Source: an uncultured Clostridia bacterium (lineage in GTDB: Bacteria > Bacillota > Clostridia > TANB77 > CAG-508). From it: 54,346 bases of DNA. This document shows, piece by piece, positions 3,758 to 21,913 of the stretch. A program made the position numbers and the translations under genes. The first letter of the stretch is position 1. Each line of letters begins with the position of its first letter. Location of the stretch: positions 1 through 54,346 of the forward strand of contig CALXJQ010000001.1 of the NCBI GenBank assembly GCA_944388665.1, given 5' to 3'. The notes under the pieces were generated by a model. That model was not told the origin of the DNA and did no database searches. It saw nothing but the letters and a program-made list of their open reading frames with translations.

Positions 3758-4447
3758 ATGAAAAATAGGGAAAAAAGTAAAAATAAAAAAAAGAATGATG
3801 AGAGTTATGAATTGGTAAAAATCGAAAAATTTTTGGATTGTAATAAAAAAGTAGAAAAAGAAGATGCAACATTCAAAAAATTAATGTTTATTTATTCAAT
3901 TGCAATAAGAGAATTAGACACAAAAATAGGAATACTAAAAGATGAATTTCAACTATTTCACAACTATGATTTAATAGATCATGTAAATAGTAGATTAAAA
4001 ACTCCAGACAGTATAATGAACAAAATGAAGAAAAAAGACTTACAACTTACATATAAATCAATGATAGAAAATATTAATGATATTGCAGGAATACGAGTAA
4101 TATGCCCATTAAAAAAGGATGTATATACCATAAAAGACTCCGTAGAAAAATTTCCAGGAATCCAAGTATTAAAAGAAAAAGATTACTTAGCTAAACCCAA
4201 AAAAAGTGGTTATTCTAGTTATCACTTAATAGTAGAAACACCAGTTCCACTGTCACAAAATGTAGCTTACGTGAAGGTAGAAATACAAATAAGAACAATG
4301 GCAATGGACTTCTGGGCTAGTTTAGAGCACAAAATGAAATATAAGCCAGATGGAGTAATTGACAAAAAAAATTCTAAAGAATGGGTAAATTGTGCAAAAG
4401 TTGTAAATAAATTAGATAATAAAATGATGTTATTAAATGAACTTTAG
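3758..4447 (+). CDS. Small alarmone synthetase (RelP/RelQ-type GTP pyrophosphokinase)
   Basis: RelA_SpoT synthetase motifs IAGIRVICPL, GYSSYHLIV and VEIQIRTMAMDFWASLEHKMKYK. It is single-domain size. Confidence 0.9.
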   Translation: MKNREKSKNKKKNDESYELVKIEKFLDCNKKVEKEDATFKKLMFIYSIAIRELDTKIGILKDEFQLFHNYDLIDHVNSRLKTPDSIMNKMKKKDLQLTYKSMIENINDIAGIRVICPLKKDVYTIKDSVEKFPGIQVLKEKDYLAKPKKSGYSSYHLIVETPVPLSQNVAYVKVEIQIRTMAMDFWASLEHKMKYKPDGVIDKKNSKEWVNCAKVVNKLDNKMMLLNEL

Positions 4448-4466
4448 GGACGTTCCTTAAAGTTCA
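4438..4466 (+). repeat. 29-bp palindromic repeat TGAACTTTAGGGACGTTCCTTAAAGTTCA, with a T-run after it
   Basis: One of six copies in the window. It overlaps the last codons and the TAG stop (4445-4447) of the alarmone synthetase gene. It is followed by ttttt, so it is terminator-like. Confidence 0.85.
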
Positions 4467-4567
4467 TTTTTAAAAAGAGGATAAAAAAGAAGGATTTATG
4501 TAAAATACGTCGAATATTATAATTATGTATATCAAGTTGGAATATTTTGAAAGAAAGTGGAGGAAAA

Positions 4568-6355
4568 ATGGCAAGGTATAGTGAGGAAATTATTGACGAA
4601 GTAAGGCAATCGAATGACATTGTAGATGTAATTTCGCAATATGTTCATTTAAAAAGAAGTGGAAGAAATTATTTTGGACTATGCCCATTTCATAATGAAA
4701 AATCACCGTCATTTTCTGTATCACCAGACAAGCAGATATTCCATTGCTTTGGATGTGGTGTTGGTGGCAATGTATTTACGTTTTTGATGAAAATAGAAGG
4801 TATTGGTTTTGTAGAAGCTGTGCAAATGCTAGCTGAAAGGGCCAATATTCAACTACCTACATTAGAAAATAGAGAAGATGCGGCTAAAGAGGCATTAAAA
4901 TCCAAAGTATATAAAGTTAATGAATTTACAGCAGAGTATTATCATCAAAACTTGTACAAGCCTACGTCTAAAATGGCGCAAGAGTATGTAAAAAAAAGAA
5001 AATTAAGTAATGATACATTAAAATCTTTTAGAATAGGTTTTTCTGGAAAATTTGATGAATTATATAAAGAATTGAAAAAGCAAGGATTTGGAAATCAAGA
5101 AATATTAGAATCTGGACTAGTAAACAAAAACGATAGAGGAGAGTATATAGATAGATATAGAAACAGACTAATGTTTCCAATTTGTGATGCGCGAGGAAGA
5201 GTAATTGCATTTGGAGGCAGAGTATTAGATGACTCTAAGCCAAAGTACATAAATTCTCCAGAAAATATTGTATATAGTAAAGGTAGGCACTTATTTGGGC
5301 TAAACGTGGCAAAAAAAAGTAATGAAATAAAGAAACGAATTTTGATAGTGGAAGGATATATGGACGTTATTTCTTTACATCAACGAGGTATTACTAATGT
5401 AGTTGCGCCACTTGGAACAGCCTTAACTCAAGCGCAGGGATGGTTACTTAGAAGAAATTCAGAGCAGGTTGTATTAAGTTTTGACTCTGACGAAGCAGGT
5501 CTTAAAGCAAAAATAAGAGCAATGGATATACTACAAGATATGGGGTGCGATGTACGTGTATTGCAGATGGAAGGCGCAAAAGATCCAGACGAATATATTA
5601 TTAAATATGGTAACGCTCGATTTAATGTACTAGTGGAAAATGCACTTTCTGTAATAGAGTTTAAAGTTAAGCTTTTAAAGCAAGATTTAAACTTAGAAAA
5701 CACAAGTGATAAAATAAAATTTTTAAATGAAATTGCAAAAATCATAGCAAAAGTCGACAATACCATAGAAAGGGAAGTGTATATTGAAAAAATAGCTAAA
5801 CAGTATGATATCTCAAAAGAGGCTATTTATGCAGAAGTTAATAAACTTACTTATGCAAATTCATCAGGAGAGAAAATTCTTGAAAGGCCAAGGCCTGTTG
5901 TTGTGCATAAGCCAGTTTCTGAAGTAAAAGTCTCAGAAGCTACAAAAAGACGAGAAAATACAATAATATCAATTTTATTGATGGGTGATTTAAATATATA
6001 TAAAATAATAAAACAAAATATAAGCGTAGAAAATTTAAAAGACCCAATTAATAAAGAAATTATTCAAAAATTGTATGAGGAATTTGAGAATGGAAATAGT
6101 AATATAAACAGTATAATTGACTCTTTAAGTGAGGAAGCACAGAGCCGTATTACTGAAATTATGGCAGAAGATTATGAAATTGACAATGTAGAAAAGGCTA
6201 TAGATGATATTTTGCAGAACTATGAAAGAGAAAGCTTAAATGAGAGAAAAATAGAAATATTAAATTTATTAAGTATGAATTTAGAAAATGAGCAAAAAAT
6301 GTCATTAGAAAAAGAATTAAATGACATTATTGTTAGGTTAGCTAAAATAAAATAA
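4568..6355 (+). CDS. dnaG: DNA primase
   Basis: Zinc-finger CPFHNEKSPSFSV..FHCFGCG and Toprim EGYMDVISL. ATG at 4568 follows GGAGGA. Confidence 0.95.
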   Translation: MARYSEEIIDEVRQSNDIVDVISQYVHLKRSGRNYFGLCPFHNEKSPSFSVSPDKQIFHCFGCGVGGNVFTFLMKIEGIGFVEAVQMLAERANIQLPTLENREDAAKEALKSKVYKVNEFTAEYYHQNLYKPTSKMAQEYVKKRKLSNDTLKSFRIGFSGKFDELYKELKKQGFGNQEILESGLVNKNDRGEYIDRYRNRLMFPICDARGRVIAFGGRVLDDSKPKYINSPENIVYSKGRHLFGLNVAKKSNEIKKRILIVEGYMDVISLHQRGITNVVAPLGTALTQAQGWLLRRNSEQVVLSFDSDEAGLKAKIRAMDILQDMGCDVRVLQMEGAKDPDEYIIKYGNARFNVLVENALSVIEFKVKLLKQDLNLENTSDKIKFLNEIAKIIAKVDNTIEREVYIEKIAKQYDISKEAIYAEVNKLTYANSSGEKILERPRPVVVHKPVSEVKVSEATKRRENTIISILLMGDLNIYKIIKQNISVENLKDPINKEIIQKLYEEFENGNSNINSIIDSLSEEAQSRITEIMAEDYEIDNVEKAIDDILQNYERESLNERKIEILNLLSMNLENEQKMSLEKELNDIIVRLAKIK

Positions 6356-6380
6356 GTTTATGGGGAAAGGGTGATAGTAA

Positions 6381-7694
6381 ATGGCAGAACAAAAAGAAAA
6401 AAAGAAAACTGATACAAAGATAAAAAAGGCTAAGGAAGAAAAGGAAAAACAAGTTGCTAGTACGAAAGCCAATACTAGTGAAAAGACAAAGTCAGATAAA
6501 GAAAATAAAGATGAACAAAGAATAGAAAAAATGGAAGCTGCAAGAAAGCAAACAAAGAAAAAGGCTGTAGAAAAAATTAAGGAAGAAGAAGAACAAAAGG
6601 ACTTGACTGAAGATACAATTAAAGATGAGAAAGTTAGTAAAATATTAAAAAAGGCTAAAGAAAAAGGAAAAATTACTTATGGGGATTTAGCTAGCGAATT
6701 AGATGATGTTAATCCAGATCAAATAGATAAGGTGTTTGATGCATTCGAAGAGTTAGGTGTAAATTTATTAAATGATGATTTAGATGAAGAGCCAGATTTA
6801 GAAGATTTAAAGGAAGTAGAAAATCTTAACTTAGATGATATCTCTGATAATGATTATGAGGGTATTAATGTTGATGACCCTGTAAGAATGTATTTAAGAG
6901 AGATAGGAAGAATTCCTCTTTTAACCTCAGAGCAAGAGCTAGATTTGGCAAAAAGAATATTAAAAGGTGATGAAGAAGCTAAGCAAAAGTTGGCAGAGTC
7001 AAACTTAAGGTTAGTTGTTAGTATTGCCAAAAAATATGTTGGTAGAGGTATGCTATTTTTAGACTTAATACAAGAGGGAAATATGGGGCTAATTAAAGCA
7101 GTAGAAAAATTTGACTATACAAAGGGATTTAAATTTAGTACTTATGCTACATGGTGGATTAGGCAAGCTATTACTAGGGCAATTGCAGATCAAGCAAGAA
7201 CAATCAGAATTCCAGTGCACATGGTAGAAACAATAAATAAATTAATAAGAACTTCAAGACATTTATTACAACAACTAGGAAGAGAGCCTACCCCAGAAGA
7301 GATTGCAAAAGAGATGGAAATTCCAGTAGAAAAAGTAATGGAAATACAAAAAATAGCACAAGATCCAGTATCATTAGAAACTCCTATAGGAGAAGAGGAT
7401 GATAGTCATTTAGGCGATTTTATACAAGATGATGAAAGCCCAGCACCTCAAGATTCTGCTGCATACACAATGCTAAAAGAACAACTAGAAGAAGTAATGT
7501 CTACATTAACACCAAGAGAGGCAAAAGTATTAAAGCTAAGGTTTGGGCTTGAAGATGGAAAAGCTAGAACTCTTGAAGAAGTAGGCAAAGAATTTAATGT
7601 TACAAGGGAGAGAATAAGACAAATAGAAGCAAAAGCTTTAAGAAAACTAAGACATCCTAGTAGAAGCAAAAAATTAAGAGATTACATGAATTAA
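6381..7694 (+). CDS. rpoD: Primary RNA polymerase sigma factor (sigma-70/SigA) with a K/E-rich N-terminal extension
   Basis: Region 2 [27 protein letters not shown] and region 4 [30 protein letters not shown]. It sits downstream of dnaG, as in the classical operon. Confidence 0.95.
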
Positions 7695-7726
7695 TATAAA
7701 AATAGCAGGAGGTAATGTGATAAAAA

Positions 7727-8803
7727 ATGGAACAAATAAAAGCTTTTTTTGATAATATTACTGCCGTAGAGATTATAGATATATGGATAGCTGTAGCTAT
7801 AATTCTATTTTTTAGAATTTTTAGTTCAGGTATTTCTTATGCTATCGTAAAAGCATTTAAATTTAAAGAATCACCAAAAAAGATAAAAGAAAGTGCTTTC
7901 TATAAGCCACTAAGACTATTCTTTATAGTCTTAGGTTTTTATTTAGCAATATTGTTTTTAAAACAACCACTCAACATTTCACAAGGAGTATGGAATATAG
8001 TAACATTAGCCTTCAAGATAATAGTTGTAATTGTTTTTGCAAGAGGACTAGCACAAAGCTTTAGGCCAGAAAGCTCTTTAGTAAAAAGAGTAGAACATAG
8101 AATAGAAAAAAAGCAAAAGAAAGTGGATGATAATGCATTTTCTTTCCTTTTAAAAATAGTAAGAGTAGCAATTTATCTTGTAGCAGCATTTATAGTACTT
8201 TCTTTACTTGGTATTAACTTAAATGGACTAATAGCAGGAATAGGTTTAGGTGGCGTTATTGTGACATTAGCAGCCCAAGATACTGCTAAAAATCTTTTTG
8301 GTGGATTAGTAATTTTTATAGATAGACCTTTCATAGTTGGAGATTGGATTCAAACAGGTAATTATGAGGGAACTGTTGAAGACATAACATTTAGAACTAC
8401 AAGGATAAGAACATTTGAAAATTCATTAGTAAATGTTCCTAATTCAGTAATGTCAGAATCTTCTATAATAAACTGGAGCAAGATGGAAAAAAGAAGATAT
8501 CGCACAAATATTTGCTTAGAAATTGATACTCCAATGGAAAAGGTACAAAAATTCGAAAAAAGGGTAGAAGAAATGCTAGCAAAAAGAGAAACCATAAATG
8601 ATGATTTTATAGAAGTAAAATTAGATGCAATTACAAGCAATGGACTTGACATTTTAATTTATGCATATACAGATTCAATTAATTATGAAAGCTATTTGGC
8701 AGAATGTGAAGATATAAATTGCAAAATAATGAAAATTTTAAAAGAAGAAAATATAGAATTAGCCTACGATACAAAAAGTGTTTATTTAAAGAACACAAAA
8801 TAG
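7727..8803 (+). CDS. Mechanosensitive ion channel family protein (MscS-like)
   Basis: TM helices plus the MscS core AAQDTAKNLFGGLVIFIDRPFIVGDWI..GTVEDITFRTTRIRTFENSLVNVPNS. Confidence 0.9.
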   Translation: MEQIKAFFDNITAVEIIDIWIAVAIILFFRIFSSGISYAIVKAFKFKESPKKIKESAFYKPLRLFFIVLGFYLAILFLKQPLNISQGVWNIVTLAFKIIVVIVFARGLAQSFRPESSLVKRVEHRIEKKQKKVDDNAFSFLLKIVRVAIYLVAAFIVLSLLGINLNGLIAGIGLGGVIVTLAAQDTAKNLFGGLVIFIDRPFIVGDWIQTGNYEGTVEDITFRTTRIRTFENSLVNVPNSVMSESSIINWSKMEKRRYRTNICLEIDTPMEKVQKFEKRVEEMLAKRETINDDFIEVKLDAITSNGLDILIYAYTDSINYESYLAECEDINCKIMKILKEENIELAYDTKSVYLKNTK

Positions 8804-8850
8804 ACATAAAGATTTGTTATAATATACAAAAAAGAAAAGAGATGAAAAGA

Positions 8851-9528
8851 ATGGTTAATGATTATATTTTAGTTGTAGATGATGAGCAAAGAATGAGAAA
8901 ATTAATAAAAGATTTCTTAGTTGCAAAAGGATATAGCATATTAGAAGCTGCAGATGGAGAAGAAGCATTAAAAGTTTTTGAAGAAAACAAAAACCATATT
9001 GTACTTATCTTACTTGATGTAATGATGCCTAAGTTAGACGGTTGGTCTGTACTTAGGCAAATTCGCCAAACATCTAAAGTTCCAATTATTATGCTAACAG
9101 CAAGAGGAGAAGAACAAGATGAATTATTTGGCTTTGAATTGGGAGTTGACGAATATATTTCAAAACCATTTAGTCCAAAAATTTTGGTAGCAAGAGTAGA
9201 AGCAATATTAAAAAGAACACAAAATGCTTCAAATGAAGTGAAAGACTACGGTGGAATTGAGGTAGATAGAGAAGGTAGAACAGTAAAAGTAGATGGAAAG
9301 CCGATAGAACTTAGCCTAAGAGAATACGAATTATTAGTTTATTTGCTAAATAATGAAAATATTGCGCTATCACGTGATAAAATTTTGAATAATGTATGGA
9401 ATTATGATTATTATGGAGATTCAAGGACTATAGATAGTCATATAAAGAAAATTAGACACAAACTTGGCAAAAAAGGAAAATATATAAAAACAATGAGAGG
9501 AGTAGGGTATAAATTTGAAGTAAAATAA
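8851..9528 (+). CDS. OmpR-family response regulator
   Basis: Receiver domain ILVVDDE..LLDVMMPKLDG and a winged-helix Trans_reg_C domain (RTIDSHIKKIRHKL..MRGVGYKF). The start was chosen at the ATG just upstream of the receiver domain. Confidence 0.9.
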   Translation: MVNDYILVVDDEQRMRKLIKDFLVAKGYSILEAADGEEALKVFEENKNHIVLILLDVMMPKLDGWSVLRQIRQTSKVPIIMLTARGEEQDELFGFELGVDEYISKPFSPKILVARVEAILKRTQNASNEVKDYGGIEVDREGRTVKVDGKPIELSLREYELLVYLLNNENIALSRDKILNNVWNYDYYGDSRTIDSHIKKIRHKLGKKGKYIKTMRGVGYKFEVK

Positions 9529-9547
9529 AAAGAAAGGGACGATATTG

Positions 9548-11050
9548 ATGGATAAAATAAAAAAAGCAATAAAATCAGTAAGAGTTAAACTATTTTTAAC
9601 CTTGTCTTTAGTTATTTTACTAATAATTGTATTTCTAATACTAGTAAATAATTTTGTCTTTGGACAATTCTATTTATATAGCAAAACCAAAGAATTAAAA
9701 TTAGTGTATAAAACAGTGAATGAATATTATGATAATCAGGAAAATATTAATTTATCAGCACAATTAGAAAGAATGGCAATAAAAAATAACTTTGATATAT
9801 TAATTAGAAATGATCAAGATGTCAATGTATATACTTCTAATAAGGACTTTTTTTCTGCACTTGGGCAAATGAATGAAATGACAAGTAGGTTTGAGGATAG
9901 TGCAAATCAAGAAATAGAAGAAAATGAAAATTATACTATAAAGAAAATGCAAGACAATAAAAATGGAATAACTTATGTATTATTATCTGCTATTTTAGAT
10001 AATGGCTATCAATTATATGTAAGAGTTCCAATAACTTCAATTGAGGAAAGTGTAAATATTTCTAATAATTTTTTGTATCTAATGGCAGGAATTACAATAC
10101 TTGTGGCAGCTGTGATAGTTTCTTATGTTAGTAGAAAATTTACAGATCCAATTTTAGAGTTAAATGATATAGCAAAAAAAATGTCAAACTTAGACTTTAG
10201 TCATAAGTATAAAGTTAGAAATGTTGATGATGAAATAAATGATTTAGGAAAAAGTATAAATGCAATGTCAGATAAGCTAGAAAAAACAATAAAGCAATTA
10301 AGAAGCACTAATTCAGAGCTAGAAAGGGATATCGAAGAAAAGTCAAAATTGGATGAGATGAGAAAAAGTTTCATTTCAGATGTTTCACATGAATTAAAAA
10401 CGCCTATTGCATTGATACAAGGATATAGTGAAGGATTATTAGAAAATGTAACACAAGATGATGAAAATAGAAAATTTTATGCAGAAGTTATACTAGATGA
10501 AAGCAATAAAATGGATAAACTAGTAAAGCAACTTCTTGAGCTTATGAAGTTAGAGTATGGCAAAAGAGAATTTAATGATACTACTTTTGACATTGTTGAA
10601 GTGGAAAAGGAGGTTATTAGAAAATCAAAAGTAATGATTGAAGAAAAAAATGCTGAAGTAAGAGTTATTCCTGATGAAGAGATAATGGTATTTGCAGATG
10701 ATTTTTACATAGAACAGGTAATCACAAACTATTTGACTAATGCAATTAAGCATGTTAAAGAAGTCAATGGTGAAAAATATATAAAGATAGATAATGCTAT
10801 AAATTTAGAAAAAAATAAGGTAAGAGTAACAGTATTTAATACAGGTGACAATATTCCGGAAGAACATTTAGATAATATCTGGAAAAGATTTTATAAAATT
10901 GATCAATCAAGAAATAGAGCAGATGGCGGAACAGGAATAGGTTTGTCATTTGTAAAAGCAATAATGACTAATTATGGAAATGATTATGGTGTTGTAAATA
11001 AAGAAAATGGAGTAGAATTTTACTTCGATTTGAATCTAAAAATGGACTAA
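9548..11050 (+). CDS. Sensor histidine kinase (TM-HAMP-HisKA-HATPase)
   Basis: H-box SFISDVSHELKTPIALIQGY, N-box NYLTNAIKH and G-box GGTGIGLSFVKAI. Confidence 0.9.
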   Translation: MDKIKKAIKSVRVKLFLTLSLVILLIIVFLILVNNFVFGQFYLYSKTKELKLVYKTVNEYYDNQENINLSAQLERMAIKNNFDILIRNDQDVNVYTSNKDFFSALGQMNEMTSRFEDSANQEIEENENYTIKKMQDNKNGITYVLLSAILDNGYQLYVRVPITSIEESVNISNNFLYLMAGITILVAAVIVSYVSRKFTDPILELNDIAKKMSNLDFSHKYKVRNVDDEINDLGKSINAMSDKLEKTIKQLRSTNSELERDIEEKSKLDEMRKSFISDVSHELKTPIALIQGYSEGLLENVTQDDENRKFYAEVILDESNKMDKLVKQLLELMKLEYGKREFNDTTFDIVEVEKEVIRKSKVMIEEKNAEVRVIPDEEIMVFADDFYIEQVITNYLTNAIKHVKEVNGEKYIKIDNAINLEKNKVRVTVFNTGDNIPEEHLDNIWKRFYKIDQSRNRADGGTGIGLSFVKAIMTNYGNDYGVVNKENGVEFYFDLNLKMD

Positions 11051-11090
11051 AGTGCCAAAGCTGTACAATTCACAGCCTTGGCACTTTTTG
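11051..11090 (+). terminator. Rho-independent terminator of the two-component operon
   Basis: agtgccaaagctgt / acagccttggcact stem followed by ttttg. Confidence 0.8.
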
Positions 11091-11250
11091 TCGAATCCTG
11101 CGATGGAAAATACTTTACAAAATCAAAAAAATATATTATTATATTAATGAAAGTTAACTTTAAAATTTCAATCAAATAATTGTTTAAATCAATTTTTTCG
11201 AAAAAATATTCCAATTAAACAAAATAAAGGAGGTTGATAACTAGTATTAA

Positions 11251-11868
11251 ATGTTTAAATATAGTACATTTTTTATAAATGTCGTAAGTATAATTATTTC
11301 GATTGTGATTTTTACTTCAGCATTGTGTTTTATGTCAGTGGCTAAACCATTTAAAACTGCACAACTAAAAGCTGGCTTTAACACATCAAACAATCAAACG
11401 CAAACAAAAGAGGAAATTGATAATAAAGAATTTGCATACACTCCTTTTAAAAATATTACTAAAGATAATACGGCAATTTCTGAAATGACAAAAAGCTGGT
11501 ATATAGAAATACCTGTAATAAGCCTAAATGCAGAAATTGCCGAAGGCACTACTAAAGAAGTAATGGATGATTATATTGGTCATTTTGAAGAAACGGAAGA
11601 ATTAGAAGGAAATATAGGACTTGCTGCACATAATAGAGGCTACAAAAATAATTACTTCGCAAAAATAAAAACGTTGAAAGAAGGTGATGAAATTTATTAC
11701 CATTATAATGGAAACACAAAAAAATATGAAGTTAAAAGTAATTATATAATTTCAGACACAAATTGGGAAGTATTAAGTAATAGTGGTAAAAATATGATTA
11801 CATTAATAACTTGTGTTGAAAACCAGCCAGAATATAGAAGATGTGTACAAGCAGAAGAAATAACATAA
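11251..11868 (+). CDS. Sortase family transpeptidase
   Basis: N-terminal TM helix, catalytic His region GLAAHNRGY, the TLITC active-site motif and a downstream Arg (YRRC). Confidence 0.85.
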   Translation: MFKYSTFFINVVSIIISIVIFTSALCFMSVAKPFKTAQLKAGFNTSNNQTQTKEEIDNKEFAYTPFKNITKDNTAISEMTKSWYIEIPVISLNAEIAEGTTKEVMDDYIGHFEETEELEGNIGLAAHNRGYKNNYFAKIKTLKEGDEIYYHYNGNTKKYEVKSNYIISDTNWEVLSNSGKNMITLITCVENQPEYRRCVQAEEIT

Positions 11869-11894
11869 ATTAAAAAAGAAAGGAAGAATTAAAT

Positions 11895-13244
11895 TTGACA
11901 AAATCAAAAACAATTAAAATAATAAAAAATGCATTGCTAATTATATTTTTATTACTATTTTCATCATTAGCATTTATAAATTCAACATTTGCAGCTGCTA
12001 TAGATACAGCTAATTTATCATCAATCGGAGACTGTGGACAATTATTAAAATATAAAGGTACTCCTGTAAAAGTAAGTTATGTACAATATGAAAACAATGG
12101 AGTTCAATATCCAGCTTATTGCTTAGACAAAACAAAACCAGGAGCAGAAACAAAGCCTTATGCGGTTTCAGTTCAAGACAGTATAAATGACGTAGGCTTA
12201 TGGAGAATAGTTGTGAATGGTTATCCATATAAATCTTTAAGTGAATTGGGAGTTGCAAATAAAGAAGAAGCTTTTACAGCAACAAAGCAAGCAATTTATT
12301 GCTATATTCACGGAAATAACCCTGATGATTACGAAGGAATAGGAGAAGCGGGTATACGAACATTAGCTGCAATGAAAAAAATCATAGCAGATGCTGAAAA
12401 CTCTACAGAAACAAAAATTTCTAATAATGTAGAAATTTATAAAGATGGAGACAAGTGGAAACAAGATAATATAGATAAAAACTATATTTCAAAAGAATAT
12501 TCAATAAGACATGAAGGAGATATAAAAGACTATACGGTTACAATTACAAATGAAAATAAAATAGACATTGGTGGAATAAAATTGACAGATTTAAATAATA
12601 ACGAAAAAAGTACATTTGCTCCAGATGAAAAGTTTAAAATATTGATACCAATTAAAAATACTAATGAATCAGGTAGTATTAATATTAAAGTAAAAACACA
12701 GATGAAAACAAAGCCAGTGTTATTTGGAGCAGCACCAGATAGTAATTATCAAGATTATGCACTAACGGCAGAAGTATATGAAGACTCTACAGGAGAAACA
12801 ACTGATTATTATACAAAAAACGAGACTAAAATAATAATTGTAAAAAAGGACAAAGAAACAGCTAAGCCACTTGAAGGAGTCGAATTTGAAATACTAGATG
12901 AGAATAAAAATGTAGTTTATCAAGGACTAAAAACAGATAAAAATGGGAAAATTGTGTTAGAAAATGTACTTCCAGGTACATACTTTATTAAAGAAGTAAA
13001 TAGTATAAACGGATATGATAAATATGAAGATTTGATAGATATAGGATTAACTATGAATGAAGAATATACTGTAACTGTTTACAATAATAAATCAGAAGAG
13101 CCAGAAATAGAAATAGAAAAAATACAAAATAATAAGGAAGTTGATGATAAAGAAGTAGAAAAAGAAAAAATATCAAACAAAAAGCTTGTAACTCAAAAAA
13201 CAGTTACTGCAGAAGAAAAAAAGCTACCAGTTACTGGTATGTAA
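11895..13244 (+). CDS. Secreted surface adhesin. It has a thioester-domain-like N-terminal part and a SpaA/Cna-B-type fold, and ends in LPVTG-M with no membrane anchor.
   Basis: Signal peptide ..FINSTFAAA. YPAYCLDKTKPG and ATKQAIYCY resemble TED adhesin motifs. VEFEILDENKN..GTYFIKEVNSINGY is a SpaA-like domain. An LPVTG motif sits at the extreme C-terminus. The gene is adjacent to a sortase. Confidence 0.75.
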   Translation: MTKSKTIKIIKNALLIIFLLLFSSLAFINSTFAAAIDTANLSSIGDCGQLLKYKGTPVKVSYVQYENNGVQYPAYCLDKTKPGAETKPYAVSVQDSINDVGLWRIVVNGYPYKSLSELGVANKEEAFTATKQAIYCYIHGNNPDDYEGIGEAGIRTLAAMKKIIADAENSTETKISNNVEIYKDGDKWKQDNIDKNYISKEYSIRHEGDIKDYTVTITNENKIDIGGIKLTDLNNNEKSTFAPDEKFKILIPIKNTNESGSINIKVKTQMKTKPVLFGAAPDSNYQDYALTAEVYEDSTGETTDYYTKNETKIIIVKKDKETAKPLEGVEFEILDENKNVVYQGLKTDKNGKIVLENVLPGTYFIKEVNSINGYDKYEDLIDIGLTMNEEYTVTVYNNKSEEPEIEIEKIQNNKEVDDKEVEKEKISNKKLVTQKTVTAEEKKLPVTGM

Positions 13245-13373
13245 ATGAATAAGAGATATATTTTAAATATATCTCTCTTCTCTAATTATATGATATTGTA
13301 AAAAATAATAATATATGGTATATTATAAAAGATAGAAAAACATATAAATAAATTTAAAAGGAGAAGATTATTA

Positions 13374-14696: not shown

Positions 14697-14753
14697 AGAC
14701 GTTACAAGTCTTTTCTGAGCAAATTTGTGCTTCGAGAAAGGGGAAAATAAAAA

Positions 14754-16487: not shown

Positions 16488-16568
16488 CATTTTGGCAAAA
16501 AATTAATAGAAATAATTTTGCTATTTTTGAATATAATAATAGTATTAATAAAAATAGTGGAGGATTCT

Positions 16569-17702
16569 ATGAAAATAAGATATTTTGATAATGCGGCAAC
16601 AACGAGGGTTAAAGAAGAAGTTTTAAAAGAAATGTTGCCGTTTTTCAGTGAAAAATATGGAAACCCTTCTTCAATGTATAGCATTGGAAGAATATCCAGA
16701 AGAGCTGTAGAAGAAGCAAGGGCGAAAGTAGCCAAAATGATTAATGCAAACCCAAGTGAAATTTATTTTACGGGATGTGGCTCAGAAAGTGATAATACTA
16801 TTATTAAAGGCATAGCTTATGCAAATAAAGCGAGAGGAAGACATATAATAACTTCAAAAATAGAGCATCCAGCGGTATTACATACTTGTCAAGCTCTTGA
16901 AAATCAAGGATTTGAAGTAACTTATTTAGATGTAAATTCAGAAGGGTTGATAGACATAGATAATTTAAGAAACAACATAAAAAATGACACAATTCTTATA
17001 AGTATAATGTTTGCAAATAATGAAATAGGTACAATAGAGCCTATAGAGGATATAAGTAAAATTGCAAGGATGTATAATATACCTTTTCACACTGATGCAG
17101 TGCAAGCGTGCGGAAATGTACCAATAGATGTGAAAAGAATGGGGATTGATGCTTTATCGCTTTCAGGACATAAGCTGTATGCGCCAAAAGGAATAGGGGC
17201 ATTGTATGTAAAAAAAGGCATAGAATTCGAAAAATTTATGGATGGAGGTCATCAGGAAAGGAACAAAAGGGCTGGAACTGAAAATGTTGCAGGGATTGTA
17301 GGATTAGGTAAGGCCTGCGAGTTGGCAGAACAAAGTATGAGTTTTCATATTAGATATTTAACAGAATTAAGAAATTATTTTATTTCAGAAATAAAAAATA
17401 GAAATTTTGATGCAAAGCTAAATGGCTCTTTGAAAAATAGACTACCAGGAAATGCAAATTTTGCATTTAGAGAAGTTGAAGGAGAAAATTTGCTTTTAAA
17501 ATTAGACCAAAGAGGAATATGTGCTTCTGCAGGCTCTGCATGTACCACAGGCTCTGCAGCCCCATCGCATGTTTTGAAGGCGATAGGACTATCAGATGAA
17601 TTGGCAAGAGGTTCTTTACGAATTACTTTTGGAGAAGATAATACTAAAGAAGATGTAGATTATTTATTAAATTCATTAGAAGAAATTTTGCAAAAATCTT
17701 AA
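16569..17702 (+). CDS. nifS: Cysteine desulfurase (NifS/IscS family, class V aminotransferase)
   Basis: YFDNAATT, the PLP lysine region SLSGHKLYAPKGIGALY, and the active-site Cys in ASAGSACTTG. ATG at 16569 follows GGAGGA. Confidence 0.9.
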   Translation: MKIRYFDNAATTRVKEEVLKEMLPFFSEKYGNPSSMYSIGRISRRAVEEARAKVAKMINANPSEIYFTGCGSESDNTIIKGIAYANKARGRHIITSKIEHPAVLHTCQALENQGFEVTYLDVNSEGLIDIDNLRNNIKNDTILISIMFANNEIGTIEPIEDISKIARMYNIPFHTDAVQACGNVPIDVKRMGIDALSLSGHKLYAPKGIGALYVKKGIEFEKFMDGGHQERNKRAGTENVAGIVGLGKACELAEQSMSFHIRYLTELRNYFISEIKNRNFDAKLNGSLKNRLPGNANFAFREVEGENLLLKLDQRGICASAGSACTTGSAAPSHVLKAIGLSDELARGSLRITFGEDNTKEDVDYLLNSLEEILQKS

Positions 17703-19270
17703 TCTTCTAAGAGAGCTATTGCACATTTTATGCCATCTACAGCTGCAGACATAATTCCACCAGCGTAGCCGGCTCCCTCTCCACAAGGGTATACACCGCA
17801 AATGTTTGATACTAACTTTTCATTACGCACAATTCTTATTGGTGAAGAACTTCTAGTTTCCAAGCCTGTTAAAATACTATCTGGATTAGAAAAGTTCTTC
17901 ACCTTTTTGCCAAAATATGAAATGCCTTCTTTTAGCGTTTCAGAGATAAACTGTGGGAGAATTTCATTCAGATTGGCTAAAGTTACACCTGGAGCATAAG
18001 TTGGTTTAACGATGCCAACTTTTTCTGATGTAACATTTTTCATAAAATCTCCTAGGCGCTGAATTGGTGCGTAATAATTAGAGCCACCAAGAGCAAATGC
18101 CTTTTCTTCTAAGTCTTGTTGAAAATACATGCCAGCTAAAGGAGAATCAGATGAAAAATCTTCTGGAACAATATTTACAAGTACTGCGGAATTTGCATTT
18201 AAGCCATCTCTGGCAAATTTACTCATTCCATTTGTTACAATAGTACCGGCTTCGCTAGACGAAGCTATTACATATCCACCAGGGCACATACAAAAAGTAT
18301 AACAAGAACGTCCGCTTTTAGAATGATATGCTAGTTTGTATTCTGCTGGCGGTAACTTTAAAGTAGGATTTGTACCATACTGGGCTTCATTAATCCACTG
18401 TTGTAGATGTTCTATACGTACACCTACAGAAAAATTTTTCTTTTCGATGGCAAAGCCACATTCGTAAAGCTTTTTAAAAGTGTCACGTGAGCTATGACCA
18501 ATGGCTAAAATTAGGTGATTGGTTTTTAATTCTGAAATTTTATTAGTAATTACATTTTCTATTTTTATAGACTTAATGTGATTATTTTCAATTACGAAAT
18601 CTGTAACTTTTGTGTTAAATAAAAATTGACCGCCATTGGAAATGATGTATTTTCGCATATTTTTTAAAATTTCTATTAAATTATCAGTACCTATATGTGG
18701 TTTAGCAAGATATAAAATTTCTTCAGGAGCGCCAAAATAAGCAAAATCCTGTAGAACTTTTTGACAATATGGGCTATGTATACCAGTAGTTAATTTACCA
18801 TCAGAAAAAGTTCCAGCTCCGCCCTCTCCAAATTGTACATTAGAAAAGCGATTAAGCTTACCAGATTTTTGAAAAGCTTCAACATCTTTTAATCTATTTT
18901 CAACAGTGTCACCTTGTTCTACAATTATTGGTTTAATGCCACTTTGCACGAGTGTAATAGCAGCAAATAAACCACCTGGACCAGCTCCAACAATAACAGG
19001 ATTGGAAGAAAAATTATTTTTTATATTAATTTTTGGCATTTCAAATTGTACAACCTTAGCAAATTGTTTATATTTATGTTCATTTTGTACTTTTAAATCA
19101 ATTGAATAATTAAAGCAGATGTCATCTTTTTTCCTAGCATCAATAGATTTCCTAGAAATATGCCATTCAAGAACATCTATAGGATTTATATGAAATTTTT
19201 TAATTGCAAATTTCAAAACTTCTTCGTTCGAAAGATTTTCCTTTATTTTAATATTATTTAGCCTAATCAT
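17699..19270 (-). CDS. FAD-dependent protein of the COG2509 type (uncharacterized dehydrogenase)
   Basis: Dinucleotide fold VIVGAGPGGLFAA. The length and C-terminal GEGAGYAGGIMSAAVDG are typical of this family. Confidence 0.8.
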   Translation of the reverse strand: MIRLNNIKIKENLSNEEVLKFAIKKFHINPIDVLEWHISRKSIDARKKDDICFNYSIDLKVQNEHKYKQFAKVVQFEMPKINIKNNFSSNPVIVGAGPGGLFAAITLVQSGIKPIIVEQGDTVENRLKDVEAFQKSGKLNRFSNVQFGEGGAGTFSDGKLTTGIHSPYCQKVLQDFAYFGAPEEILYLAKPHIGTDNLIEILKNMRKYIISNGGQFLFNTKVTDFVIENNHIKSIKIENVITNKISELKTNHLILAIGHSSRDTFKKLYECGFAIEKKNFSVGVRIEHLQQWINEAQYGTNPTLKLPPAEYKLAYHSKSGRSCYTFCMCPGGYVIASSSEAGTIVTNGMSKFARDGLNANSAVLVNIVPEDFSSDSPLAGMYFQQDLEEKAFALGGSNYYAPIQRLGDFMKNVTSEKVGIVKPTYAPGVTLANLNEILPQFISETLKEGISYFGKKVKNFSNPDSILTGLETRSSSPIRIVRNEKLVSNICGVYPCGEGAGYAGGIMSAAVDGIKCAIALLED

Positions 19271-19421
19271 AAACTTCTCCTTTTAAAAATTACTTAAATT
19301 AAAGTATAGCATATTTTAATTAATTATGCTATACTTATTTATGATAATATTTTATAAGAAAAATAAAAATTAACTGCCCATGAAGCGGAAAAAGTATTAA
19401 AGAGAAAGGAATGTGAAAAAA

Positions 19422-20537
19422 ATGGAAAAATCAAAAGTATATTTTACAGATTTTAGAACAAAGAATGGATATAATCTATTGCAAAAACTAGAAAATTTAA
19501 TAAAAAAAGCAGGGATAGAAACGATAGATTTCGATCAAAAATTTGTAGCGATTAAAATACATTTCGGAGAATATGGCAACTTGGCATACTTAAGACCTAA
19601 TTATGCAAAAGTTGTAGTTGATGAAGTAAAAAAATTAGGAGGAAAGCCTTTCCTAACTGATTGTAACACATTATATGTTGGTGGTAGGAAAAATGCCCTA
19701 GATCACTTAGATACAGCGTATTTGAATGGATTTTCACCATTTTCAACAGGATGTCATGTAATAATAGCAGATGGCTTAAAAGGAACAGATGAGCAAGAAG
19801 TAGAAATAAATCAAGAATATGTAAAAACTGCAAAAATCGGTAGAGCAATAATGGATGCAGACGTAATAATATCACTAACACATTTCAAATGCCATGAAAT
19901 GACTGGACTAGGAGGTGCAATAAAAAATATTGGAATGGGATGTGGTTCAAGAGCAGGAAAAATGGAGATGCATAACCAAGGAAAGCCAGAAGTAATAAAA
20001 GAAAAGTGTAGAAAATGTAGACAATGCATAAAAATATGTGCGCATGGAGCCATCTCTTATGGAGAAGACGGCAAATGTATAATAGACCACAACAAATGTG
20101 TTGGCTGTGGAAGATGCATTGGAGTGTGCAATTTTGATGCAATAACAGCACCAAATGATGAAAATGGAGATATCTTAAACAAAAAAATGGCAGAATACAC
20201 TTTAGCAGTCGTAAAAGATAAACCACAATTTCATATTAGTCTAATATGTGACGTATCACCTAATTGCGATTGCCATGCAGAAAATGATGTCCCAATCGTA
20301 CCAGACATTGGTATGCTTGCATCATTTGACCCAGTAGCACTAGACAAAGCTTGTGCAGACCTAGTAAATGCACAAACTCCAATCGAAAACAGTGCATTGG
20401 GTGAAAACATCAAAAAAGACATACATGAACAAGACAACTTCCATACGAACCATCCAGATACAAACTGGCAAAGCCAAATAGAGCACGCTGTAAAAATAGG
20501 CTTAGGCAACGCAGAATATGAATTAATCAAAGTATAA
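19422..20537 (+). CDS. DUF362-domain protein with a 4Fe-4S dicluster insertion
   Basis: Two CxxCxxCxxxC motifs (CRKCRQCIKIC and CVGCGRCIGVC) sit inside a DUF362-like scaffold. Confidence 0.8.
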   Translation: MEKSKVYFTDFRTKNGYNLLQKLENLIKKAGIETIDFDQKFVAIKIHFGEYGNLAYLRPNYAKVVVDEVKKLGGKPFLTDCNTLYVGGRKNALDHLDTAYLNGFSPFSTGCHVIIADGLKGTDEQEVEINQEYVKTAKIGRAIMDADVIISLTHFKCHEMTGLGGAIKNIGMGCGSRAGKMEMHNQGKPEVIKEKCRKCRQCIKICAHGAISYGEDGKCIIDHNKCVGCGRCIGVCNFDAITAPNDENGDILNKKMAEYTLAVVKDKPQFHISLICDVSPNCDCHAENDVPIVPDIGMLASFDPVALDKACADLVNAQTPIENSALGENIKKDIHEQDNFHTNHPDTNWQSQIEHAVKIGLGNAEYELIKV

Positions 20538-20540
20538 AAA

Positions 20541-20569
20541 TGAACTTTGGGGACGTTCCTTAAAGTTCA
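20541..20569 (+). repeat. 29-bp palindromic repeat TGAACTTTGGGGACGTTCCTTAAAGTTCA
   Basis: It lies 3 nt after the DUF362 gene stop. It is identical in core to the other copies. Confidence 0.85.
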
Positions 20570-20592
20570 AAACGAAAAGTGTGTCAAAAAAT

Positions 20593-20654
20593 TTGCCAGG
20601 AGGGACGTAGCAAAATGGCAAAAAATTGCCAAAAAGGTACGTCCCTAGTGGCAA
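20593..20654. repeat. Nested palindrome of a second repeat family: TTGCCA..AGGGACGTA..TGGCAAaaaaTTGCCA..TACGTCCCT..TGGCAA
   Basis: Arms AGGGACGTA (20601-20609) and TACGTCCCT (20638-20646) are perfect inverted repeats around an inner TGGCAA/TTGCCA hairpin. A related half-copy lies at 54245-54273. Confidence 0.7.
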
Positions 20655-20701
20655 AAATGGTGCTTTCGGTGGCGACTTTAGTCTATTTAAGCGAGGAATT
20701 T

Positions 20702-21370
20702 ATGGAAAGAAAAAAGGTACAAAAAAGAACGATAATTAATTTTATAATAAAAATCTTTTGGATATTCATAATAGGCAGTGTTTTTGGCTTCTTTGCAGAA
20801 ATGTTATACACTTTGGTGTATAGTAGAACTTTGCAAATAAGGCAAGGTTTAATATATGGGCCTTTTATACAAGTATATGGAGTGGGAGCAATTGCATATT
20901 ACATTTTAGTCTCAAAAGTAAAAACTCCTAAGGAAGTTTTTATTTATGGAACAGTTATGGGGGGCGTTTTGGAGTACCTCTTTTCATTTTTCCAAGAAAT
21001 ATTCTTTGGAACGATTTCATGGGACTATAGCAAATTTTTCCTTAACTTAAATGGGAGAATTTGCCTATTATATTGTGTATATTGGGGAATAATAGCTATA
21101 ATTTTTTTGAAAATAGTTTATCCATGGCTTCAAAGGTTAGAGCCATTAATATATAAAAAGAGCATAAGAATATTTACATATTTTTTTATGATATTTATGA
21201 TTTTTGATATCACAATTTCTTGTATGGCAGCAAGCAGGCAAGAAAACAGACATAAAAATATACCGCCACAAAATTCGGTAGACGAATTCTTAGATAAAAC
21301 ATATCCAGATGAAGTGCTTGACAAAATATATAATAATAAACGTGAAGTGAACTTTGGGGACGTTCCTTAA
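20702..21370 (+). CDS. Multi-pass membrane protein, putative ABC-transporter type IV (CmpB-like) family
   Basis: IFIIGSVFGFFAEMLYTLV..GLIYGPFIQVYGVGA is typical of this family. The start is placed at ATG 20702 because the upstream part of the ORF track model is made of palindromic repeats. Confidence 0.65.
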   Translation: MERKKVQKRTIINFIIKIFWIFIIGSVFGFFAEMLYTLVYSRTLQIRQGLIYGPFIQVYGVGAIAYYILVSKVKTPKEVFIYGTVMGGVLEYLFSFFQEIFFGTISWDYSKFFLNLNGRICLLYCVYWGIIAIIFLKIVYPWLQRLEPLIYKKSIRIFTYFFMIFMIFDITISCMAASRQENRHKNIPPQNSVDEFLDKTYPDEVLDKIYNNKREVNFGDVP

Positions 21371-21376
21371 AGTTCA
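21348..21376 (+). repeat. 29-bp palindromic repeat TGAACTTTGGGGACGTTCCTTAAAGTTCA
   Basis: It encodes the last residues (VNFGDVP) and the TAA stop of the upstream membrane protein gene. Confidence 0.85.
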
Positions 21377-21448
21377 CTTTTAAAGTTCTAACATTACTTA
21401 TTGAAGAATACAATTAAACAAAAGTATTCTCATAAAGGAGTTAGAGCA

Positions 21449-21712
21449 ATGATAAATGTATCAATAGAAGAACGAGCTATAGCGCTCGCACATTATATAA
21501 TAGATTCAAAAGATACAGTAAGGGGAGCAGCAAAAAAATTTGGCGTTAGTAAAAGTACGGTACATAAAGATGTTTCTGAAAGGCTAGAAAAAATAAATCC
21601 GGCATTAGCAAGACAAGTTAGAGTAATACTAGATGAGAACAAAGCGGAGAGACACATAAGAGGAGGAATGGCAACAAAAATGAAATATAGTAAAAAACAT
21701 CTTGAACTTTAG
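21449..21712 (+). CDS. spoIIID: Sporulation transcriptional regulator SpoIIID
   Basis: AAKKFGVSKSTVHKDVSERLEKINPALARQVRVILDENKAERHIRGGMATKMKY closely follows the SpoIIID consensus. AAGGAG RBS. Confidence 0.9.
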   Translation: MINVSIEERAIALAHYIIDSKDTVRGAAKKFGVSKSTVHKDVSERLEKINPALARQVRVILDENKAERHIRGGMATKMKYSKKHLEL

Positions 21713-21731
21713 GGACGTTCCTTAAAGTTCA
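21703..21731 (+). repeat. 29-bp palindromic repeat, forward copy. It is the left arm of an inverted pair.
   Basis: TGAACTTTAGGGACGTTCCTTAAAGTTCA. It supplies the final EL codons and the TAG stop of spoIIID. Confidence 0.85.
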
Positions 21732-21777
21732 TTTTTGCTTTTCCTTTATTTTAGGCATTTATAGCATTTTTTTAAAT

Positions 21778-21806
21778 TGAACTTTAAAGAACGTCCCCAA
21801 AGTTCA
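21778..21806 (-). repeat. 29-bp palindromic repeat, reverse copy. It is the right arm of the inverted pair.
   Basis: TGAACTTTAAAGAACGTCCCCAAAGTTCA, 46 bp from the forward copy. Confidence 0.85.
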
Positions 21807-21913
21807 AGATGACACCTTTTTACAAGATTCTACATAAAATACATTAGGGCAGCTTAAGTACTAATATTAATTACTAATTAACTACATTAGAGGTAAAAAG
21901 GAAGGATGGAGTT

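Follow-up and report, generated by a model that had tools for sequence, protein, structure and literature searches.

Several genes in a 54,346-nt stretch of DNA from an uncultured Clostridia bacterium (the window) end inside copies of one short palindrome, which raises the question of what this repeat is and how it came to lie at the ends of genes. A preliminary description of the window listed six copies of a 29-bp palindrome, and a pattern search recovered all of them: four exact matches on the (+) strand (4438–4466, 20541–20569, 21348–21376 and 21703–21731), one match with a single mismatch on the (−) strand (21778–21806), and bases 1–18, which are a truncated copy in reverse orientation at the contig edge. 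None of 100 shuffles gave a match. Four ORFs had been described as ending inside a copy, and this holds for three. The 229-aa ORF at 3758–4447 (+), a putative alarmone synthetase, ends ..LLNEL-TAG, where EL and the TAG (4445–4447) come from the A variant of the element (TGAACTTTAGGG...) at 4438–4466, which is followed by TTTTT. The 222-aa membrane protein ORF at 20702–21370 (+) ends ..REVNFGDVP-TAA, with NFGDVP and the TAA, at element position 21, supplied by the G variant at 21348–21376. The spoIIID-like ORF at 21449–21712 (+) ends ..KKHLEL-TAG, with EL and TAG again from an A variant, at 21703–21731, which is also followed by TTTTT and is the sole copy within 19000–23000 flagged as terminator-like. 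The fourth case, a peptidase ending ..TIN-TGA, is conditional because the minus-strand frame concerned (..PTNTTIN, closed by the TGA at 18–16 in the truncated copy and encoding a peptidoglycan-binding-like stretch) reaches the upstream peptidase ORF (128–697) only through a frameshift. The remaining (+) copy, at 20541–20569, is the consensus G variant and holds no stop; it begins 3 nt downstream of a 374-aa peptidase-like ORF (19413–20537, +) that has its own TAA.

The copy at 21703–21731 is also the first unit of a doublet. A T-rich spacer of 46 nt (21732–21777), which belongs to a family of loosely conserved spacers whose length is constant (about 46–48 nt), joins it to the inverted T variant at 21778–21806 (C19T, G-U pair kept), and the two units fold together into a long REPIN-like hairpin (−49.5 kcal/mol for the (+) strand, −56.4 for the (−) strand). 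A second strain, 99.5% identical, carries the same four copies, and comparison with this single strain revealed no filled-versus-empty site polymorphism within the species.

The preliminary description had made a genome-wide scan its own test, a local duplication being one of the outcomes that would count against it. Across the contigs of the 1.4-Mb genome we found 177 copies at ≤5 mismatches (172 at ≤2 mismatches), so the repeat is not a local duplication. In 173 copies positions 1–29 are invariant except at sites 9 (G/A) and 19 (C/T), where both alternatives keep pairing. The edges are sharp: flanks are unrelated, with zero information content, and no conserved base upstream or downstream that might represent a target sequence is visible across the copies. 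As RNA the unit folds into a 13-bp stem with a 3-nt loop and two G-U pairs (−14.4 kcal/mol), in keeping with the 12–13 bp hairpin first described, and the core GGGGACG sits at its apex; the reverse strand folds at just −8.9 kcal/mol. The 29-mer is an imperfect palindrome whose strand asymmetry is conserved, in agreement with recognition as a single strand.

Placement of the copies is biased towards gene ends. Among the 177, 134 are intergenic, 39 overlap only a stop codon and none is truly internal: three apparent internal copies are two over-extended ORF starts and the transposase gene's own mutated 3′ copy, which is read through. Copies are enriched between convergent genes, and lie downstream of genes when these are co-directional. 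Taking ORFs of 100 aa or longer, 39 copies (22%) contain a stop codon, accounting for 40 gene ends. Gene-end enrichment, the other part of the proposed test, is also present: among the 144 copies that lie between two ORFs, 35 were observed to be stop-bearing versus 19.2 ± 3.7 expected under uniform placement between the flanking ORFs (2000 trials, maximum 32). The element and the gene are co-oriented in 35 of the 40 cases and opposed in five, and a co-oriented gene's transcript carries the stronger hairpin (−14.4 kcal/mol, versus −8.9 the opposite way). Because the 29-mer opens with TGA and its other two frames give TAG (A variant) or TAA, a copy landing in the last codons terminates the protein at once. 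The stops lie at element offsets 1 (19 cases), 8 (13) and 21 (8), and the gene endings made are TGA, -EL-TAG or -NF(G/R)DVP-TAA, leaving protein length nearly unchanged.

Other palindromic elements also meet genes. Liang, Rudd and Deutscher (Mol Cell, in 2015) reportedly described E. coli REPs near stop codons, where a hairpin at or a few nt from the stop is said to be able to impede the ribosome at termination and so reduce protein output. The 29-mer likewise places a stable hairpin at or a few nt from stop codons and might act in the same way; unlike those REPs, in the 22% of copies noted above the stop is inside the hairpin and supplied by the element. Rickettsia palindromic elements (RPEs) and Correia elements, to which the preliminary description compared the family alongside REPs, are palindromic miniature elements that can be incorporated into coding sequence or into the ends of genes. 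RPE insertions are in frame and within genes, whereas 0 of 177 copies of the 29-mer lie in frame inside a continuing gene, and this analogy was not upheld.

The same description had proposed that the element replaces or creates native C-termini. Comparison of orthologous gene ends agrees, with only the last few residues altered: wherever orthologue tails align, relatives without the insertion have their native stop 0–3 codons from the element edge, so that the element provides the stop and 0–6 tail residues. In genome G047 the orthologue of the 229-aa ORF has the ending ..KMMQLN-TAA and, after it, a terminator hairpin of its own, and the copy at 4438–4466 occupies the site of both; in two cases altogether the 29-mer stands where relatives have a terminator hairpin. 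Ten relatives of the membrane protein end ..YNNK(K/R)E/D plus 1–13 unrelated residues, and relatives of the spoIIID-like ORF end ..KYSHL(x2-10). G047 carries the 29-mer family, yet has no copies at the window's sites. As a separate observation, a position at or across the stop codon is also seen for native terminators of this lineage, in 12% of cases.

These data bear on a reading in which the copies evolved in the host as intrinsic terminators or mRNA 3′ stabilisers, are homogenised by selection or gene conversion, do not move, and are only incidentally linked to a transposase. Measured as an intrinsic terminator, the 29-mer has a stem of −14.4 kcal/mol and, as the preliminary description had noted, often precedes a T-run: of the 6 bases directly after the element, 5 or more are T in 62 of 176 copies (35%), versus 5.7% of the intergenic background. 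Orientation tracks the gene and not GC skew, copies are located where native terminators sit, and two of them replace a terminator hairpin of relatives. The copies may act as terminators or mRNA stabilisers. As an account of their origin, however, this reading is extremely improbable in our view, since 65% of copies have no T-run and 29 invariant bases with unrelated flanks at 177 places are unlike convergent terminators. The distribution among species is also patchy: of the 338 species in the genus, 4 have the repeat in high copy number, and several further species-level genomes carry an identical sequence. The composite elements and transposase genes described below argue against it as well.

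The 29-mer occurs as 75 singletons and about 45 doublets with a period of 75–77 bp. Many doublets are direct (++; period about 76 bp) and none is divergent (−+). Clusters hold at most three units in mixed orientations, with spacers grouped in related families, and a CRISPR array was rejected on these grounds. The unit also forms both terminal repeats of a composite miniature element of roughly 308 bp: its 250-bp body has a 29-mer abutting or within 120 bp in 14 of 14 copies and is bracketed on both sides in 12 of 14, an association not expected of host terminators. For a second type of miniature element (the one at window 26651–26890), just 3 of 14 further copies have 29-mers on both sides. 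The core GGGGACG is common to two other repeat families of the genome. Family B often adjoins the 29-mer; it has no stop in any frame and lies 0–20 nt after stops, with a single overlap. In the window, a unit of a second repeat family, C (20595–20653), has two inverted GGGACGT cores within TTGCCA/TGGCAA arms and so has the GGG(G)ACG core in common with the 29-mer.

The genome has two PF01797 genes, on contigs C34 and C5. The gene on C34 (11326–12156, outside the window) encodes an intact Y1/HUH transposase and lies between inverted 105-bp doublets of the 29-mer, whose spacers are inverted copies of each other as well; around the C5 gene the inverted repeats belong to family B. The model NF047646, 'REP-associated tyrosine transposase', scores the two proteins at 65.4 and 69.0 bits (C34: 65), under the NCBIfam equivalog cut-off of 80, which makes them divergent relatives and not equivalogs. 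A protein profile gave TnpA-REP (4ER8) as its top PDB match (E 6e-6), spanning the HUH and YIxxNP motifs, and H60, H62 and Y120 are invariant. Proteins of the family are about 255 aa long with a conserved C-terminal ..T(Q/Y)KEI..LG(I/V)xR.. segment, where matches to helix-turn-helix models are weak (Sigma70_r4 0.002–0.01, HTH_24 0.009, HTH_Crp_2 2.5e-4). An IS200/IS605-derived element was considered and rejected: the IS200 transposase model gives both proteins 17–22 bits (C34: 17; cut-off 55), and the 29-mer has no fixed 4–5 nt target.

Orthologues of the C34 transposase at 60–65% identity were found in six other species (G047, G254, G229, G354, G355 and G356), each directly flanked by the repeat, so that repeat and gene adjoin in seven genomes, the source genome included. 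In G229 all 48 copies, among them the pair on either side of its transposase gene, have the loop changed to ACAGT. Neither observation suits host-evolved terminators. An ending ..HEL or ..NEL is shared by many orthologues, which is what a stop located within the repeat would produce, and coordinates place the stop of the G047 gene inside it. No close orthologue was found in G159, G234, G357, G358, G359, G360 and G362 (12–129 copies each), half of the repeat-bearing draft genomes; as these are draft metagenome bins the gene may be unassembled, and the repeats may equally outlive or not need the transposase.

The flanked C34 gene, the NF047646 and 4ER8 matches, the flanked orthologues and the co-varying loop of G229 together point to a REP/RAYT system, by its sequence features closest to the TIRtron/TIRYT type. 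We therefore consider it probable that the 29-mer is a REP-type non-autonomous palindromic unit, most likely spread by a single-stranded DNA tyrosine (HUH/Y1) transposase of the RAYT/TIRYT class, and of the analogies first drawn it is REP that applies, since the repeat flanks a cognate RAYT-like gene. Alternatively, the 29-mer could belong to a miniature inverted-repeat element moved by another, DDE-type transposase, as with Correia, RUP and ERIC, with the RAYT-like gene merely inside one. The composites, in which a pair of inverted 29-mers encloses either a body of about 250 bp or a 47-nt spacer, would suit such an element, as would the draft genomes in which no close orthologue was seen. We nevertheless hold it to be highly unlikely. 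Target-site duplications are absent in 97 of 124 clusters and the remainder are no more than in a shifted control; Correia elements are characterised by a TA duplication and ends of the DDE type, and that part of the preliminary analogy therefore fails, while for Y1 enzymes the absence of target-site duplications is expected. The majority of copies are single 29-mers, too short as a two-ended DDE substrate, and both the strand asymmetry and the orthologous gene flanked in seven genomes speak for the RAYT reading. It is also conceivable that the 29-mers serve other elements as fixed landing pads or sites of recombination, like the REPs targeted by certain insertion sequences, and were spread by recombination and not by a RAYT. 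The second miniature element, with so few of its copies between 29-mers, and the frequent abutment of family B fit this, but it leaves unexplained both the origin of 177 identical units with unrelated flanks and the joint change of RAYT orthologue and repeat variant; as a replacement for the RAYT explanation it deserves very little credence, and it can stand alongside it.

The REP/RAYT system resembles known ones to different degrees. A 29-bp imperfect palindrome, in high copy number and essentially extragenic, falls within the REP class (20–40 bp), as does one cognate Y1/HUH gene of the RAYT clade between inverted repeat copies. Classical REP, BIME and REPIN families similarly have hundreds of copies as singlets, doublets and clusters and are species-specific (Nunvar 2010, PMC2817692; Bertels & Rainey 2011, PMC3116915), and degraded copies without a visible transposase gene, as appears to be the case in G358 and G359, are known for them too. 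REP super-families have an unpaired GTAG or CGTC tag at the stem foot (PMC3733652), whereas neither tag lies beside the stem of the 29-mer (CGTC is present only in the reverse-strand loop) and its conserved motif is at the hairpin apex; the direct doublets also differ from the inverted REPIN form. Abundant repeats were found only with RAYT groups 2 and 3 (Bertels et al. 2017, PMC5581495). Closer are TIRtrons, whose flanking inverted repeats carry GGGGWSAS (Di Nocera et al. 2013, PMC3733652): in both, inverted repeats with a GGGG-A-C motif bracket a gene for a RAYT-like Y1/HUH protein, self-complementary repeats, dispersed families and dimers occur, and a flanking repeat can overlap the gene's 3′ end. 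As in TIRYTs, the protein appears to exceed classical RAYTs in length, and its C-terminal tail may be of the helix-turn-helix type. The core GGGGACGT or GGGGACGG matches GGGGWSAS at 6 of 8 positions, and the G229 variant GGGACAGT is nearer to it in the last positions. The 177 copies are well above the 'moderately abundant' TIRtron families, and the host, an uncultured gut Clostridia lineage, is listed for such repeats by neither PMC3733652 nor PMC6006769. The protein may also be akin to TnpA-REP subclass 2.1 with its C-terminal HTH, a subclass beside whose genes no REP-like sequences were reported (Quentin et al. 2018, PMC6006769).

Of 10 RAYT-like genes inspected in relatives, 7 lie between inverted GGG(G)ACG pairs. 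The presence of the GGGGACG core there, in the 29-mer and in two other families suggests that it is probably the recognition or cleavage motif of the enzyme. We propose that the transposase, encoded once, on C34, would catalyse the movement of the 29-mer unit as single-stranded DNA. Copies persist mainly at gene 3′ ends, oriented for the stronger hairpin in the mRNA, and a copy at a gene end takes over the native stop and, in two cases, the terminator hairpin also. A bolder and rather doubtful possibility is that GGGGACG-cored hairpins are gene-end-homing 'mobile terminators': TIRYT-type transposases would target the single-stranded terminator hairpin or stop region, so that stop and terminator are replaced together, repeatedly at the same gene ends across species. 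Recurrent capping of two genes has been counted in its favour. At an nrdD-like gene, elements lie +6, +2 and +1 nt past the stop in G000, G159 and G014, respectively, the element in G014 being of a different repeat family, and a 252-aa gene is capped in both G000 and G159, 9 nt apart. If this idea were true, a transposase-driven process would underlie both the turnover of terminators and the recurrence of short C-terminal tags (-EL, -NFGDVP) across a genus of at least 338 species.

Four copies of the 29-bp palindromic repeat (29-mer), TGAACTTTRGGGACGTTCCTTAAAGTTCA, were recovered by pattern search on the + strand of the window at 4438, 20541, 21348 and 21703 with 0 mismatches, and a further copy lies on the − strand at 21778–21806 with 1 mismatch to TGAACTTTRGGGACGTTCCTTAAAGTTCA; the pattern had 0 matches in 100 shuffles. 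The partial copy at bases 1–18 is a reverse-oriented 29-mer whose end is cut off by the contig edge. Folded as RNA, the unit forms the hairpin proposed in the preliminary description, with a 13-bp stem, a 3-nt loop and two G-U pairs at −14.4 kcal/mol, whereas in the complementary strand both G-U pairs turn into A-C mismatches, which limits the fold to −8.9 kcal/mol. Four ORFs had been described as ending inside copies, and three of them do so, all on the + strand: ..LLNEL-TAG (stop at 4445–4447), ..REVNFGDVP-TAA (21368–21370) and ..KKHLEL-TAG (21710–21712). The fourth, ..TIN-TGA (stop at 18–16, − strand), lies in a frame that looks coding and resembles a peptidoglycan-binding repeat, but the peptidase ORF at 128–697 lies in a different frame, and reading ..TIN-TGA as the end of the peptidase therefore depends on a frameshift. 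On this minus strand (16–180 and 128–697), the peptidase-like ORF stops at 128 and the peptidoglycan-binding-like frame runs on to the 29-mer's TGA, with the junction of the two near a GAC-CGG-AAT site.

The repeat is not confined to this region. With up to 5 mismatches allowed, a scan of the window's own genome (G000; 1.41 Mb in 97 contigs, 30.7% G+C, 98% complete) returned 177 copies; tightening the limit to 2 mismatches left 172. Because 22 of the copies are found 200 bp or less from a contig end, the real copy number is probably higher; the repeats evidently break assemblies. When 173 copies were aligned together with their 25-nt flanks, positions 1–29 proved practically invariant, and the flanks gave no information apart from ~60% T at +1 to +5. 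Only two sites vary, 9 (G in 124 copies, A in 47) and 19 (C in 140, T in 33), and both changes keep pairing, from G-U to A-U and from G-C to G-U, respectively. Copies are arranged as 75 singletons, 45 doublets and 4 triplets; the doublets have a period of 75–77 bp, 46–48-nt spacers belonging to a few loosely related families, and the orientations ++, −− or +−, with −+ absent among them. A CRISPR array was rejected, as clusters have at most 3 units, mixed orientations and related spacers, and a DDE-type MITE was rejected because no target-site duplications were found at 29-mer clusters in this genome. Searching the doublet against Rfam gave only sub-threshold matches to generic long hairpins (plant miRNA precursors), and a promoter within the doublet spacer was discarded, its matches being no better than those in shuffles.

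Two genes of this genome encode a PF01797 (Y1_Tnp) protein. One, on contig C34 (11326–12156, 276 aa), sits between inverted 105-bp 29-mer doublets (11042–11146 and 12192–12296) whose spacers are also mutual inverted copies. The other, a RAYT-like gene on the minus strand of contig C5 (4624–5400, equivalent to L009:1102–1878; 258 aa), has inverted copies of a further repeat family, family B, at C5 4432 and 5477. Both proteins scored 65–69 bits against the NCBIfam model NF047646, ‘REP-associated tyrosine transposase’, versus 17–22 bits against the IS200 model, with neither reaching the NF047646 equivalog cut-off of 80 bits. The single C34 protein sequence had no match in a PDB search; the best match of a profile built from ten family members was Escherichia coli TnpA-REP (4ER8, E 6e-6), over the HUH and YIxxNPV motifs, and H60, H62 and Y120 are invariant in the family profile. 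The C-terminal segment is conserved in C34/C5-type proteins, with only weak HTH matches. About 945 homologues were found in public data, almost all of ~255 aa and unnamed or called ‘transposase’; plasmid and phage collections held no relative above 35% identity. The 29-mer at the C34 gene's own 3′ end (C34:11368–11396) is mutated (TTT to TAT, TTAAAG to TAAAAG), and the ORF runs through it (..NYRDVPKSS..), ending 20 residues longer than its ~256-aa orthologues.

Among 338 species genomes, close orthologues of the transposase (E at most 1e-70) occur within the genus in G000, G047, G254, G229 and G220, and three genomes reached through the exact 29-mer (G354, G355 and G356) add further ones. In 7 of these 8 genomes the repeat directly borders the gene on both sides; the exception is G220, where no 29-mer was found at up to 3 mismatches. 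All 48 copies in G229, both gene-flanking ones included, have the loop ACAGT instead of ACGTT, so enzyme lineage and repeat have changed together. Several orthologues have ..HEL or ..NEL as their C-terminus, which is what a stop codon located within the repeat would produce, and the coordinates in G047 show this directly. In seven draft genomes that have 12–129 copies no close orthologue was found, which counts against a strictly one-to-one link. Core mutations in many copies of two of them, G358 and G359, fit decay after gene loss; for G159, with 129 near-perfect copies, an unassembled gene is the more likely explanation.

The heptamer GGGGACG, which spans the stem top and loop of the 29-mer, occurs 231 times in the window's genome versus 4–38 times for control heptamers of equal composition. 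Three families share it as a core: the 29-mer; family B (GRTGTTTTTGGGGACGGAGGAAAAAAACAYC, with 62 copies genome-wide), in which it lies in the loop; and family C (TTGCCACTGGGGACGTACCTTTTTGGCAA.., ~44 copies, with TTGCCACTGGGGACGT..TGGCAA arms), which has one unit in the window at 20595–20653. Family B lies mostly 0–20 nt after stop codons in gene orientation and often abuts a 29-mer. No cognate transposase gene for family C was found in the assembly; a RAYT paralogue in G159 and G234 is flanked by repeats similar to family C. Inverted GGG(G)ACG repeats with otherwise unrelated arms flank 7 of the 10 RAYT-like genes examined in relatives. Two close relatives without the 29-mer, G001 (L023) and G014 (L027), carry GGGGACG-cored repeats of their own, such as GGGGACGTTCCTTCAATCCC.., just after the membrane-protein gene, a gene end that bears the 29-mer in G000.

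Longer elements also incorporate the 29-mer. The genome has 14 copies, 91–95% identical, of a 250-bp palindromic body, all with 29-mers abutting or within 120 bp, and 12 of the 14 lie between a + and a − copy. The composite measures ~308 bp (29-mer(+), body, 29-mer(−)) and is present at C8:15008–15315 and 13 other loci. Inverted 29-mers therefore bound at least three contents: the transposase gene, the 250-bp body and the 47-nt spacers. At C8 15008–15315 the TGA stops of both convergent neighbours come from the terminal 29-mers. Many loci in G001 and G014, genomes without the 29-mer, match an 83-bp stretch of the body. The 240-bp hairpin repeat at 26651–26890 of the window was considered as a family member and rejected, being a different repeat without the GGGACG core; no 29-mer lies near it, and of its 14 further matches in the genome three lie between inverted 29-mers (C22:5531–5672, C32:5448–5612 and C74:3800–3938).

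With genes called crudely as non-overlapping ORFs of 100 aa or more (1158 genes), we found 134 copies to be intergenic and 39 to hold an ORF stop codon, accounting for 40 gene ends as one copy serves two convergent ORFs. Three seemingly internal copies proved to be two ORF starts over-extended across a copy, an instance of how 29-mers can displace gene calls, and the transposase gene's own end; an RPE-type insertion was rejected, as no copy is truly internal in frame. Stops fall at element position 1 (TGA, 19 cases), 8 (13 cases, the 11 co-oriented ones all being TAG from the variant with A at site 9) or 21 (8 cases). In 35 cases the copy is co-oriented with the gene and in 5 opposed, the co-oriented genes ending in TGA (17), -EL (11) or -NF(G/R)DVP (7), so that dozens of unrelated proteins receive the same short tails. 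Of the 144 copies that have an ORF on either side, 35 bear a stop, versus 19.2 ± 3.7 expected (maximum 32 in 2000 trials) under uniform placement between flanking ORFs with 26-nt incursions allowed, which bears out the proposed enrichment at gene ends. Between −26 and +20 nt relative to the stop, 55 copies are co-oriented and 9 opposed, and orientation follows the neighbouring gene 47 versus 9 overall. A replication-strand bias was sought through GC skew and set aside, since skew is confounded with the coding strand (rho 0.91) and shows only gene-following orientation; among genes opposed to local skew, orientation still follows the gene (10 versus 4), a weak test.

Family B shares this position and orientation bias, with only one stop overlap, and has no stop codon in any frame; the 29-mer donates stops because it has its own in all three frames. 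Native terminator-like hairpins start 0–40 nt after stops and overlap the stop in 11 of 92 cases, and the gene-end habit is therefore common to repeat elements and terminators. G098 (L028), a relative that lacks the element, already has the TGA stop of spoIIID inside its native terminator stem (AAGAGAATTTGA..TCAAATTCTCTTTTT); a stop in a hairpin is thus not unique to the mobile element.

That the element replaces native C-termini, as first suggested from the window, was borne out by five genes whose orthologues in element-free relatives show native ends. The alarmone synthetase-like ORF ends ..KMMQLN-TAA, followed by a terminator hairpin, in G047 and ..KMMLLN+EL-TAG in the window's genome, where the 29-mer and T-run replace stop and hairpin and alignment resumes downstream. 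A 210-aa gene changes from ..ITLLYK-TAA in relatives to ..ITLISH-TGA with its length unchanged, and a 252-aa gene from ..QLLNEFLNN-stop to ..QLLTRF+EL, its G159 counterpart (..QLLNKFLKN+EL) being capped nine nucleotides further on. SpoIIID (..KYSHL plus 2–10 residues in relatives) becomes ..KYSKKHL+EL, and the membrane protein (..YNNK(K/R)E/D plus 1–13 residues) becomes ..YNNKREV+NFGDVP. On C8, the relatives' tails of a 322-aa gene are too diverged to locate the native stop, and a 578-aa gene had no orthologues among the loci compared. A metagenome scan with the membrane protein found a single contig of this species (99.5% identical), which carries the same four 29-mers, and no empty site within the species; the 29-mer was in none of 46 distant loci. 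After the conserved nrdD-like gene, elements lie +6 (G000), +2 (G159) and +1 nt (G014) from the stop, that of G014 (L156) coming from another GGGGACG family, and G047 and G234 have no element there. G047 has 49 copies, yet none at the window's 29-mer sites. Copies have thus been gained at different places in each lineage, often at the same gene ends, which could reflect either targeting or survivorship in compact intergenic regions.

The REP-like reading of the preliminary description was essentially right: judged by sequence, the 29-mer forms a REP-type family, linked to a RAYT/TIRYT-like transposase whose gene is flanked by 29-mers. Nearly all known REP/RAYT systems are from Proteobacteria, and such systems have hardly been described so far in the host's phylum. 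RAYT-like genes with flanking inverted repeats sharing GGGGWSAS were described as TIRtrons/TIRYTs by Di Nocera et al. (PMC3733652), and most TIRYTs were placed by Quentin et al. in TnpA-REP subclass 2.1, with a C-terminal HTH domain and no REPs beside the genes (PMC6006769). The core found here matches GGGGWSAS at 6 of 8 positions, and the system appears to fit the TIRtron/TIRYT kind best. HTH-tailed relatives (TIRYT, subclass 2.1) have been linked to moderately abundant repeats or none (PMC3733652, PMC6006769), whereas this small-genome gut Clostridia lineage has two such systems, with repeats at 177 and 62 copies, and one core motif common to all the families, which recurs in the sequences bordering RAYT-like genes of relatives.

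The T-run said to follow the repeat is present, with intrinsic-terminator form, at about a third of copies and lacking at the rest; within 19000–23000, only the copy at 21703 was flagged by a terminator consensus scan. The mRNA strand carries the stronger hairpin at gene ends, and a role as terminator or 3′ stabiliser is plausible from these sequence features. E. coli REPs near stops are reported to act as a brake on the terminating ribosome, and by analogy a similar role for the 29-mer is plausible. Three features stand out: many families in a large genus have a common core at the hairpin apex, the same gene ends are capped repeatedly, and stop codons are donated systematically. If the bias towards gene ends comes from targeting and not survivorship, the system would represent one way in which transposases reshape terminators and stop codons.
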